This document shows, piece by piece, positions 905 to 4,877 of a DNA stretch of 64,000 nucleotides (its first letter is position 1; the number at the start of each line of letters is the position of its first letter). The notes beneath the pieces are model-generated. The model was not told the DNA's origin and did not search any database. It worked only from the letters and a program-made list of their open reading frames with translations. The translations under genes were made by a program, and so were the position numbers. Source of the DNA: a virus (taxonomy: Duplodnaviria > Caudoviricetes); the IMG/VR virus record IMGVR_UViG_3300036770_005357; one strand, 5' to 3'.

Positions 905-946
905 TGGTGGGTATGGAGGGAGTCGAACCCCCATGCCTTTCGGCGG
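905..946 (-). pseudogene. 3' half of a class II tRNA-Leu (variable arm, T arm, acceptor 3' strand, ACCA), 5' half missing
   Basis: Minus strand: CC GCC-GAAA-GGC AT GGGGG-TTCGACT-CCCTC CATACCC A CCA. No matching GGGTATG 5' strand upstream. Confidence 0.75.
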
Positions 947-1045: not shown

Positions 1046-1138
1046 TGGTGGTCCTGTCAGGTAACGCTCCTGATTCTTACGCTAGTCCGGCGATTAACTG
1101 TGTTATAAGCACAGCGGCTTTCTTTAAGCTACAGGACC
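1046..1138 (-). tRNA. tRNA-Ile(UAU), atypical: 5-nt D loop, 24-nt extra arm, T loop AGCGTTA
   Basis: GGTCCTG/CAGGACC acceptor, GCTT/AAGC D stem, CTGTG-CTTATAA-CACAG, TCAGG-AGCGTTA-CCTGA, ACCA. Confidence 0.8.
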
Positions 1139-2515: not shown

Positions 2516-2590
2516 TGGTAGGGCGCCACGGTAACGATCCGTGTTCTACTGGTTAAAAGCCAGTTGCTTCACCGTTAAAGCTTGCACCCC
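2516..2590 (-). tRNA. tRNA-Lys(UUU), CCA encoded, T loop ATCGTTA
   Basis: GGGGTGC/GCGCCCT, GCTT/AAGC, ACTGG-CTTTTAA-CCAGT, CACGG-ATCGTTA-CCGTG, ACCA. Confidence 0.9.
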
Positions 2591-2990: not shown

Positions 2991-2996
2991 TAAAAA

Positions 2997-3077
2997 TGGC
3001 GCTTCGGGAGGGATTTGAACCCACATTTACATCCAATTATGCACTTAGAGCTTAGAAGACTCCGCCATTACCGAAGC
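2997..3077 (-). tRNA. tRNA-Arg(UCU)-like, D stem absent, long variable arm, CCA encoded
   Basis: GCTTCGG/CCGAAGC acceptor, 7-nt connector TAATGGC, GGAGT-CTTCTAA-GCTCT, extra arm TGCAT-AATTGG-ATGTA, GTGGG-TTCAAAT-CCCTC, GCCA. Confidence 0.7.
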
Positions 3078-3094
3078 ACGATCACTTATTGAAA

Positions 3095-3424
3095 TTACTG
3101 CTTATCCTTCTTTAGTTCATCTTGTACTGACTTACCCAGTTCTGTCAAGCCAAAAAGTGGCTCTCCATTCTTATCATAACCAACAATCTGTACAAGTCCT
3201 TGCTTGACAAGATCATCCACAGTTTCCTTAACCTCCATAAGAGAAGCCTCTTCATAGATTTCATTGGCTTCAGCTTCGTCACAACCAGTTTCCTTCATAA
3301 TGTACTCAATGGCAGATTGTCGTTCACACTGCTTATCCAGCTCATCTACATTAAGATTTGCGCAATGGTTAAGCACTTGATCAATTGTACCGGTAAACAT
3401 ACCACCGTGTTCAGAAAATTCCAT
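3095..3424 (-). CDS. Hypothetical protein, possible C-terminal winged helix
   Basis: ORF track. C-terminus LVKQGLVQIVGYDKNGEPLFGLTELGK. Confidence 0.6.
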   Translation of the reverse strand: MEFSEHGGMFTGTIDQVLNHCANLNVDELDKQCERQSAIEYIMKETGCDEAEANEIYEEASLMEVKETVDDLVKQGLVQIVGYDKNGEPLFGLTELGKSVQDELKKDKQ

Positions 3425-3854: not shown

Positions 3855-4877
3855 TTATATATTGAATATAGATTTTAGCTTAGATTCTACTGTATAGAAC
3901 CAATCTGTATTATTTGAAGGTGTGGTTGGAATTTTACTTAAAAGTATTTTCGTACTATATGTTGCCAAACCATGTTGTTCGGCATCATTACAATTGGCAT
4001 ATTGTTCGTAGTGATTTGGCAATGGTACCATTAAGACTGGTTTATTATTCAATATAGCTTCAGCGGTTGTTTCAAATCCACCGCTACAAATAACAGCTTT
4101 GCACACTTTCATTTTTTCTTGAAAAAGTTTACCGTCTAATTTATGTAATTTTAAGTTATGTGGACATTCAAAATTTCTTGTTAATCTTGTAAAGCATTCT
4201 AATTTTATATCTGGATATTTTATAGCTTCTTCAATTAAACCGGGTACCAAATCTTGATTCATTAAATATATTAACACAAAATCTTCAGTTTTGTCACTTT
4301 TGTCATAACTGTTTTGTCTAAGCACTGGTGGACAGCAGATAACATTATCATCATTAAATTCATAATAACTCAACGCAACTTTTTTGGCTCGTATAGTTGT
4401 GATACAATTAATTAACTTTACAAAGAATTTTTGTATTGCATAACCATTTATTTTTGGATATACATCAAGTATCATTGCATTTTGGTGGGATATGCTTATA
4501 TAATTGATTTTAGGAAATAATAAAGCAGAAAGCCCGACCAATGGTTCATAAAAGTTAACAATTGTATCTGGATTTTCTTGTTTGATTGTTTTACAAATCT
4601 TAATAAATGCATAAATTAATCGGGGTAATTCTATTACATTTTTTAACATGGTTTTCCATAAAACTACTTTGCCGTGATTATCAAATACAAAATCAAAACC
4701 TTCAAAGGTTACCACATTAAATTCATCGGTAAAAAACTTTGGTAGACCTACTTTCTTTTCTGCTGCTAATATACAGCTTACATCGTGATTGTTTTTATTT
4801 AGAAATTGTTTAGTGGCAATAGCTTGTATTGTATGTCCACTACCTTCTGTACAAACAGCAAATAATATTTTTTTCAT
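3855..4877 (-). CDS. GT-B glycosyltransferase, MJ1255/VC2487-like (GT28/GT1 related)
   Basis: N-terminal CTEGSGHTIQA. C-terminal GGFETTAEAILNNKPVLMVP..HYEQYAN. Confidence 0.8.
   Translation of the reverse strand: MKKILFAVCTEGSGHTIQAIATKQFLNKNNHDVSCILAAEKKVGLPKFFTDEFNVVTFEGFDFVFDNHGKVVLWKTMLKNVIELPRLIYAFIKICKTIKQENPDTIVNFYEPLVGLSALLFPKINYISISHQNAMILDVYPKINGYAIQKFFVKLINCITTIRAKKVALSYYEFNDDNVICCPPVLRQNSYDKSDKTEDFVLIYLMNQDLVPGLIEEAIKYPDIKLECFTRLTRNFECPHNLKLHKLDGKLFQEKMKVCKAVICSGGFETTAEAILNNKPVLMVPLPNHYEQYANCNDAEQHGLATYSTKILLSKIPTTPSNNTDWFYTVESKLKSIFNI

Follow-up and report, generated by a model that had tools for sequence, protein, structure and literature searches.

The stretch of viral DNA considered here, 64,000 nucleotides (nt) in length and hereafter called the window, is part of the 173-kb IMG/VR virus record IMGVR_UViG_3300036770_005357, which is estimated to be 73% complete and has a G+C content of 30%. 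On its minus strand at 2997-3077, starting 17 nt past the stop codon of a conserved open reading frame (ORF) of 109 amino acids (3095-3424), lies an 81-nt gene with the anticodon UCU of a transfer RNA (tRNA) for arginine. Its parts are arranged in an order different from that of ordinary tRNAs, and it will be referred to as the permuted gene. Running ARAGORN on the window identified five neighbouring tRNAs of the ordinary type (Leu-CAA, Ile-UAU, Met, Glu and Lys) and missed the gene at 2997-3077. Genes of the same layout were collected with a search pattern in which a WNUGGA motif stands 8-20 nt after a UCU anticodon loop and 4-16 nt before a T loop, and the family columns below are those of alignment A2 (96 sequences, MAFFT). 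RNA residues are numbered 1-81, the window coordinate being 3078 minus the RNA position. The gene and its parts are as follows.

2997-3077, minus strand: whole gene, an 81-nt tRNA-Arg(UCU) with a proposed permuted core and an encoded CCA.
3071-3077, minus strand: acceptor 5' strand GCUUCGG (RNA 1-7), with 7/7 pairs to 3001-3007; in the family all seven pairs covary and 98.4% are paired.
3069-3070, minus strand: U8 and A9, both invariant.
3065-3068, minus strand: 5' strand of the predicted long-range D helix, A10 U11 G12 G13, in place of canonical 22-25; A10-U39, U11-A38 and G12-C37 are paired and G13.G36 is unpaired.
3064, minus strand: single junction base C14, equivalent to position 26; the alignment column (15) is variable (C44 A30 G17 U5).
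3047-3063, minus strand: anticodon arm GGAGU/GCUCU (five pairs, two of them G.U) with the loop CUUCUAA and the anticodon UCU at 3054-3056; the stem covaries and is 95.6% paired in the family.
3043-3046, minus strand: linker L1, AAGU, the probable equivalent of variable-loop positions 44-47; 2 to 11 nt long in the family.
3039-3042, minus strand: 3' strand of the predicted long-range D helix, G36 C37 A38 U39, in place of canonical 10-13, as indicated by covariation; the terminal U is invariant.
3032-3038, minus strand: D-loop AAUUGGA, equivalent to A14, A15, U16, U17, G18, G19 and A20, with a conserved GG.
3025-3031, minus strand: linker L2, UGUAA, followed by A-U (equivalents of A21 and U48); column 63 is A in 95/96 and column 64 is U in 91/96.
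3008-3024, minus strand: T arm GUGGG/UUCAAAU/CCCUC, with one U.U mismatch at the second pair that recurs in other members; the family T stem is 99% paired.
3001-3007, minus strand: acceptor 3' strand CCGAAGC, pairing with 3071-3077.
2997-3000, minus strand: discriminator G and encoded CCA.
2992-2996, minus strand: tract of five U immediately 3' of CCA, a possible transcript end, conserved in the syntenic relatives (alignment A3).

Much of this gene has the make-up of a cloverleaf tRNA, namely a 7-bp acceptor stem with discriminator and CCA, a 5-bp anticodon stem with a 7-nt loop that holds U33 and a purine at 37, and a T arm with a loop of the UUCRANY type. Between positions 9 and 26, no D-arm hairpin was found. 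The connector from the acceptor to the anticodon stem is UAAUGGC, only 7 nt long (UA + AUGG + C), and a 22-nt segment, AAGUGCAUAAUUGGAUGUAAAU, with AAUUGGA inside it, lies between the anticodon stem and the T arm. This agrees with the layout that defines the family, where U8-A9 is followed by 4-6 nt leading straight to the anticodon stem. These elements (the acceptor, anticodon and T arms, the encoded CCA, the short connector and the extra segment) had been listed in the initial annotation and are all confirmed, on the minus strand. The same annotation had remarked that AAUUGGA resembles the D loop of an arginine tRNA, and the likeness is genuine: the D-loop 8-mer AAUUGGAU is identical to that of a related phage (locus L018), where it belongs to an ordinary tRNA-Arg(UCU). 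The bases UAAUUGGA, and further on the AU before the T stem, give the window gene the signature U-A-A-(N)-U-G-G-A of its family. The Rfam model RF00005 matches it marginally, at 29.9 bits compared with a gathering score of 29, with the 15 D-arm positions reduced to 4 nt and an insertion of 19 nt before the T arm (cmscan). The family model R1 gives the window gene 74 bits (E 2.7e-18), although the gene is one of the 96 seed sequences of that model; members from cultured phages outside the seed score 61-77 bits.

The most informative aspect of the family is the relation between the connector and the bases just before UAAnUGGA, which change together: AUGG is found with GCAU, UCGG with CCGU, UCUC with GAGU, UCCC with GGGU and CAAG with CUUG. 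Columns 12 and 45 are paired in 96/96 sequences (CG74 UA14 GC7 AU1), columns 13 and 44 likewise in 96/96 (GC54 UA18 CG15 AU9), and columns 14 and 43 in 72/96, with five standard pair types. When the register is shifted by one column, 45% of cells are paired, as against 93% in the proper register. In a structure-free analysis by mutual information with average product correction, the three helix pairs rank 5th, 12th and 17th of all column pairs, and those that rank above them are, with one exception, known helix pairs; moreover, RNAalifold predicts the long-range helix de novo from the family alignment. Compensatory substitutions are seen in all four helices of the family. An independent set is provided by 42 distinct members with the anticodon UAU, found by scanning for the layout and used neither in the model nor in forming the hypothesis, in which 125/126 helix cells (99%) are paired, compared with 25-46% in shifted registers. 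With three bases of the connector covarying with the three immediately 5' of UAAUUGGA, this pattern indicates that the D stem closes around the anticodon arm, with the D loop coming after it, and that the window gene is not D-armless. The view in the initial annotation that there is no D stem has consequently to be revised: A10-U11-G12 pair with C37-A38-U39, and the two columns paired throughout the family do so with four pair types each.

Two syntenic relatives are known (loci L036 and L064), in which the gene order is the same as in the window (Arg, Lys, Glu, Met and a 93-nt Ile-UAU), with the permuted gene at the head. It is identical at 69/78 positions across the three phages, with compensatory changes of U4-A69 to C-G and of A29-U41 to G-C, while its short intergenic flanks are unalignable among them. 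A normal D arm in close relatives had been named beforehand as an observation that would reduce the gene to a simple deletion pseudogene; none is present, both relatives keeping the permuted layout.

What follows the helix is constrained in a similar manner. Its 3' strand is succeeded in A2 by an invariant U, an invariant A, an A (G in four sequences), one or two pyrimidines, G G A, a linker, a near-invariant A, a U and the T stem. The residues U8, A9, the U13-equivalent and A14 are each found in 96/96 sequences and the A before the T stem in 95/96, none of these being imposed by the search pattern, and columns 48 and 64, which resemble R15 and Y48, covary as a Levitt pair (AU 91, GC 2, UG 1). 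The shortest members have zero extra nucleotides relative to the permuted canonical order. Because the segments after the helix follow the order 13, A14, R15, Y16, Y17, G18, G19, A20 ... A21, Y48, the chain order 1-9, 22-47, 10-21, 48-76 is, as far as it can be read from aligned sequences, a circular permutation of the tRNA core.

We propose that the RNA chain would run from the acceptor 5' strand through U8 A9, a strand of 3-4 nt, the junction base, the anticodon arm and a 4-nt linker to a complementary strand of 3-4 nt, and would continue with U-AAUUGGA (13, A14, A15, U16, U17, G18, G19, A20), a short linker, A-U, the T arm, the acceptor 3' strand, G73 and CCA. Crystal structures suggest that the helix stacked on the anticodon stem would be equal, whichever of its strands continues into the anticodon stem. 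The three new joints (9 to 22, 47 to 10 and 21 to 48) would connect residues that are adjacent in the canonical L-shape, so that the usual L would be within reach, and the usual U8.A14, 15.48 and G18G19/T-loop contacts could be formed. It can be surmised that the simplest origin would be one tandem duplication of 10-47, followed by the loss of one copy of each half, and that the permuted order would have been retained since folding would be equally good. When block 10-21 was returned in silico to its canonical place, ARAGORN called tRNA-Arg(tct) at normal length in 72/95 sequences, versus 3/95 in the natural order and 38-45/95 with a shuffled block; this outcome is supportive yet weakly discriminating, shuffled filler still being called in about 44%.

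The family is large. The pattern matched at least 120 loci in IMG/VR, and segmentation yielded at least 114 loci (95 distinct sequences) that are laid out like the window gene and form 6-7 of the 7 acceptor pairs at the expected spacing; only 6/114 members are overlapped by an ARAGORN call. Since 99/121 loci also hold ordinary tRNA genes, with 791 ARAGORN calls in total, the permuted genes are members of phage tRNA clusters. Across 596 Gb of bacterial and archaeal genomes, the pattern gave 74 matches, about 30 of them true members and mostly on contigs of metagenome-assembled genomes, and the two bacterial-isolate loci that were inspected are flanked by phage-family proteins. Cultured or finished carriers include the 735-kb megaphage LR756501, phages of Agrobacterium, Stenotrophomonas and Limnohabitans, and Alishewanella phage Slicko01, where the gene is annotated as tRNA-Ser. 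One subfamily occurs in 266 GenBank records from Felix O1-like, rV5-like, Klebsiella and jumbo phages, the Felix O1-like, rV5-like and jumbo carriers being phages of E. coli K-12 and Salmonella. Individual cultured carriers include the BASEL felixounaviruses 'garuso' and 'tootiki' and Klebsiella phage KB57. The members are labelled in GenBank as tRNA-OTHER, tRNA-TERM, tRNA-Ser or hypothetical protein, or have no label. In 40 listed records of cultured phages the label tRNA-Arg was found in 0/40; most have no feature at this place, four have tRNA, tRNA-OTHER or tRNA-TERM, and in six the gene is overlaid by a coding sequence for a hypothetical or HNH protein. Given these missed or mislabelled members, phage tRNA repertoires are under-counted.

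Searches that started from the window itself reached less far. Megablast with 2 kb around the gene against GenBank phages gave no match, an exact 36-mer in IMG/VR had no match beyond the window's own record, and no related locus was confirmed with the neighbouring 109-amino-acid protein as a query. Through the glycosyltransferase at 3855-4877, 19 related loci were obtained; the permuted gene is present in 0/19 of these, blastn and nhmmer searches of them with the 81-mer returned nothing, and in 2/19 an ordinary tRNA-Arg(UCU) is located at another place.

Some members depart from the common form. One at L074:5533-5614 (plus strand) has an anticodon loop of 8 nt, UGUUCUAA, and not 7, in a locus that has both UCU and UCG members. 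Many permuted-core tRNA-Ile(UAU) genes (in L223, L230, L258 and others) have after the anticodon stem an insert of 8-12 nt that contains UUAUAAU, a second copy of the anticodon-loop sequence.

The identity of the amino acid can be approached from the known determinants of arginyl-tRNA synthetase (ArgRS) of the E. coli type, which are A20, C35, G or U at 36 and, to a modest degree, position 73 (PMC4615739). The window gene has C35, U36 and GGA, and thus the ArgRS identity bases. Among UCU members GG is followed by A in at least 120 loci and by another base in one, and GGA is kept in 14/14 members with CCU, UCG or ACG, which were found by the model. In the two members with GAU and CAU, GGU is present instead. 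The UAU members have GGU in 41/42 and the discriminator A in 42/42, compared with discriminators G48 A31 U16 C1 in the UCU members. A different anticodon is thus accompanied by a different discriminator and a different base after GG, exactly as the identity rules of ArgRS and isoleucyl-tRNA synthetase (IleRS) predict. We therefore envisage, by way of mechanism, that the host ArgRS would charge the RNA via A20, C35, U36 and G73, and that the charged RNA would read AGA, the arginine codon that predominates in this phage with its 30% G+C. Counted over 47 long ORFs of the window, 56% of arginine codons are AGA, at 15.7 per 1000.

The composition of phage tRNA sets is in line with such a role. Neither the Rfam model nor the family model detects a further arginine tRNA in the 173-kb record. 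In Felixounavirus REP8, arginine is missing from the 22 named tRNAs, and the permuted gene is present in addition, annotated as 'tRNA-OTHER, Nd_NNN'. In L101:1601-8694 (minus strand), four permuted arginine tRNAs (UCU, CCU, UCG and ACG) stand among ten ordinary tRNAs, and ARAGORN calls zero arginine tRNAs in the locus. On this evidence, the gene at 2997-3077 is very probably a working elongator tRNA-Arg(UCU) with a permuted core that reads AGA. The suggestion of the initial annotation that this is a non-standard AGA-type tRNA of an AT-rich phage is borne out, the gene being real and conserved. It had left the choice between a functional novel cloverleaf and a tRNA mimic; a working tRNA is favoured, the cloverleaf has to be given up, and a mimic is made less likely by identity bases that switch with the anticodon.

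Several points weigh against this conclusion. The record being about 73% complete, a canonical tRNA-Arg could lie in the remainder. An ordinary tRNA-Arg(UCU) is found nearby in 6/114 loci, where the permuted gene would be redundant for decoding, and a demand for decoding therefore cannot explain everything in every phage. In the window gene the long-range helix amounts to just three Watson-Crick pairs plus G.G, and the T stem contains a U.U mismatch. The fold energy of the whole molecule is ordinary compared with shuffles (z = -0.96), and the nearest-neighbour minimum free energy (MFE) structure of the single window sequence is a local 5-bp hairpin, UGCAU/AUGUA. The proposed three-dimensional fold, a canonical L, is an expectation from known structures and not from a model; likewise, processing, charging and decoding of the window RNA are predictions from the sequence. 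A freshwater metatranscriptome that shares 5% of words has contigs covering 2780-2813 and 3100-3278, none of them over the gene, and is uninformative on its expression.

Three other explanations have to be set beside a working permuted tRNA. The local hairpin just mentioned is the basis of one of them, a truly D-armless tRNA with a single-stranded connector, in which the 22 nt would form a hairpin of their own, UGCAU/AUGUA, presenting a D-loop-like loop. This agrees with the hairpin in the variable-arm position that the initial annotation had drawn, and the AUGG-connector subfamily often has CAU...AUG around the GG motif. Across the 96 members, however, the cells of such a hairpin are paired in just 47.6%, with almost no double changes, and C37-A38-U39 covary perfectly with the connector instead. 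The AUG on its downstream side consists of the nearly invariant A-U and the first G of the T stem, a chance match to the CAU that pairs with the AUG of the connector, and the hairpin appears in the subfamily of the window for this reason. We regard the D-armless fold as very improbable. A decaying pseudogene, produced by a D-arm deletion and an insertion, or an assembly artefact would explain why the Rfam threshold is barely reached, why ARAGORN misses the gene and why the T stem has a mismatch, but neither can be reconciled with a layout that cultured phages with finished genomes share with hundreds of unrelated contigs from phages, with compensatory substitutions in all four helices and invariant tertiary bases, or with a gene that is conserved in syntenic relatives while its flanks diverge; this explanation is scarcely credible. 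The independent UAU set argues against an alignment artefact of the search pattern.

An alternative of a different kind is that the gene specifies a tRNA-shaped RNA that does not decode. It might act as a decoy or sponge against a nuclease by which the host attacks tRNAs, bind ArgRS or a modification enzyme, or take part in the processing or regulation of the tRNA operon. The position of the gene, upstream of the promoter-driven tRNA operon and not within it, could be taken to favour this, as could the 6/114 loci that also hold a normal tRNA-Arg(UCU). A role of this type would leave without explanation the perfect anticodon loop CUUCUAA, the encoded CCA and perfect acceptor stem, the complete set of arginine isoacceptors on the permuted scaffold in L101, and the phages with near-complete tRNA sets in which the permuted gene is the only arginine tRNA. 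A switch of the base after GG and of the discriminator between Arg and Ile, in step with the anticodon, would be needless for a nuclease decoy. We thus consider a non-decoding RNA improbable, more so than the working tRNA-Arg(UCU) by far, though it is the least improbable of the three.

Turning to the surroundings of the permuted gene, a promoter-like sequence, TTGATC-16-TGnTAGGAT, is found at about 2917-2944 on the minus strand, some 55 nt downstream of the gene, where it heads the next RNA genes; it is conserved in L036 and L064, and a scan for consensus promoters did not list it. Given this arrangement, the permuted gene would probably share its transcript with the ORF that precedes it and not with the tRNA operon.

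The neighbouring RNA genes have peculiarities of their own. The tRNA-Ile(UAU) at 1046-1138 (minus strand), 93 nt long, has an extra arm of 21 nt, in which the stem CGC/GCG closes a loop with GG in it; its D loop is short and lacks GG, and its T loop is AGCGUUA. The Rfam tRNA model gives it only 32.8 bits, and L036 and L064 have it in the same long form, at 93-94 nt. In this T loop, as in that of the tRNA-Lys at 2516-2590 (minus strand), which is AUCGUUA, the usual U54...A58 is swapped to A54...U58. At 905-945 (minus strand), between the tRNA-Leu(CAA), which it follows directly, and an HNH-like ORF that begins a short way downstream, there is an orphan T arm, AUGGGGGUUCGACUCCCUC, followed by CAUACCCACCA, with no recognisable 5' half; it could be a 3' fragment of a tRNA or a minihelix-like element. 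In L215:539-4983, from the isolate Acidobacteriaceae bacterium KBS 96, a permuted tRNA-Arg has as neighbours an RtcB-like RNA ligase (phrog_1075), an HNH endonuclease and an RNA-binding protein of 593 amino acids (phrog_850), and in Felixounavirus REP8, too, the tRNA array is headed by a gene annotated as 'RNA-binding protein'. These neighbours in L215 and REP8 raise the idea that permuted tRNAs may be linked to RNA repair.

Comparison with known tRNAs helps to define what is unusual here. The canonical class I tRNA-Arg(UCU), represented by RF00005 and by the ordinary genes at L015:6838-6915 and L018:2654-2730, has the same 7-bp acceptor stem, CUUCUAA loop and UUCRANU T loop, the same U8, A14, G18 G19, A20, purine discriminator and CCA, and about the same total length; we take E. 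coli argU and the tRNA-Arg of phage T4 to be further examples of it. The synthetase and the codon are probably the same, to judge from these shared bases. Unlike it, the permuted gene has its segments reordered and no D hairpin between 9 and 26: the D helix of 3 bp would be long-range and enclose the anticodon arm, and the D loop would run straight into the T arm, so that a three-way junction with a nested stack is predicted in place of the four-way cloverleaf. The class II tRNAs (Leu, Ser and bacterial Tyr) are similar in having about 20 nt between the anticodon stem and the T stem, a resemblance that accounts for the annotation of the Slicko01 member as tRNA-Ser, but the extra segment of the permuted gene is not a self-contained hairpin, a normal D arm is lacking, and anticodon and identity bases are those of arginine.

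The D-armless tRNAs of mitochondria (mammalian mt-tRNA-Ser(AGY) and nematode mt-tRNAs) likewise have a short connector and no hairpin between the acceptor and anticodon stems. They have lost the D stem together with the conserved contacts of the D loop and T loop and work in mitochondrial translation only (PMC7609411). In contrast, the permuted gene, in its bacterial-phage setting, keeps an equivalent of the D stem, G18 G19, A14 and a standard T loop; neither a single-stranded connector nor a loss of G18 G19 and of T-loop bases is found in the permuted family.

Circularly permuted tRNA genes were reportedly described by Soma et al. in 2007 in the red alga Cyanidioschyzon merolae. In that organism the whole gene is permuted, and processing of a circular intermediate restores a normal mature tRNA. 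The phage gene is like these in the permuted order of its parts, but both of its ends, 5' and 3', are normal and the permutation is internal. For this reason the mature phage RNA must keep the permuted order, no known processing being able to undo it. Readings of the gene as a pseudogene, as one interrupted by an intron or as a precursor processed to the canonical form were considered and rejected, both gene ends being normal and the permutation internal. No description of the permuted layout was found in full-text literature searches or in a review of non-canonical tRNAs (PMC7609411).

As to why the permuted form persists, it may have arisen once and been inherited neutrally, the anticodon switching to that of Ile in some members, or it may confer an advantage such as escape from tRNA-directed nucleases. 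One version of the latter, which we put forward tentatively and hold to be rather unlikely, is that the permuted core has been selected: the RNA would be a functional tRNA-Arg (or, by change of anticodon, tRNA-Ile) that is accepted by bacterial ribosomes and synthetases and goes unrecognised by a host tRNA-directed defence nuclease or by the phage's own activity that destroys host tRNAs, because the path of the chain around 8-10, 26 and 44-48 differs. If so, bacterial translation would have its first class of non-cloverleaf elongator tRNA, and counter-defence a new structural route. Retron Eco2 has host tRNA-Arg as one of its targets, and most Felixounavirus species tested are unrestricted by this retron (PMC12916289); a connection to the permuted tRNA is no more than a lead.

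In textbooks and reviews, tRNAs outside mitochondria are held to be cloverleaves (PMC7609411). If the interpretation given here is true, a large and conserved class of phage tRNAs would constitute a natural circular permutation of the tRNA core, and the L-shape, not the cloverleaf, would be what translation needs; the permuted scaffold may also serve tRNA engineering.

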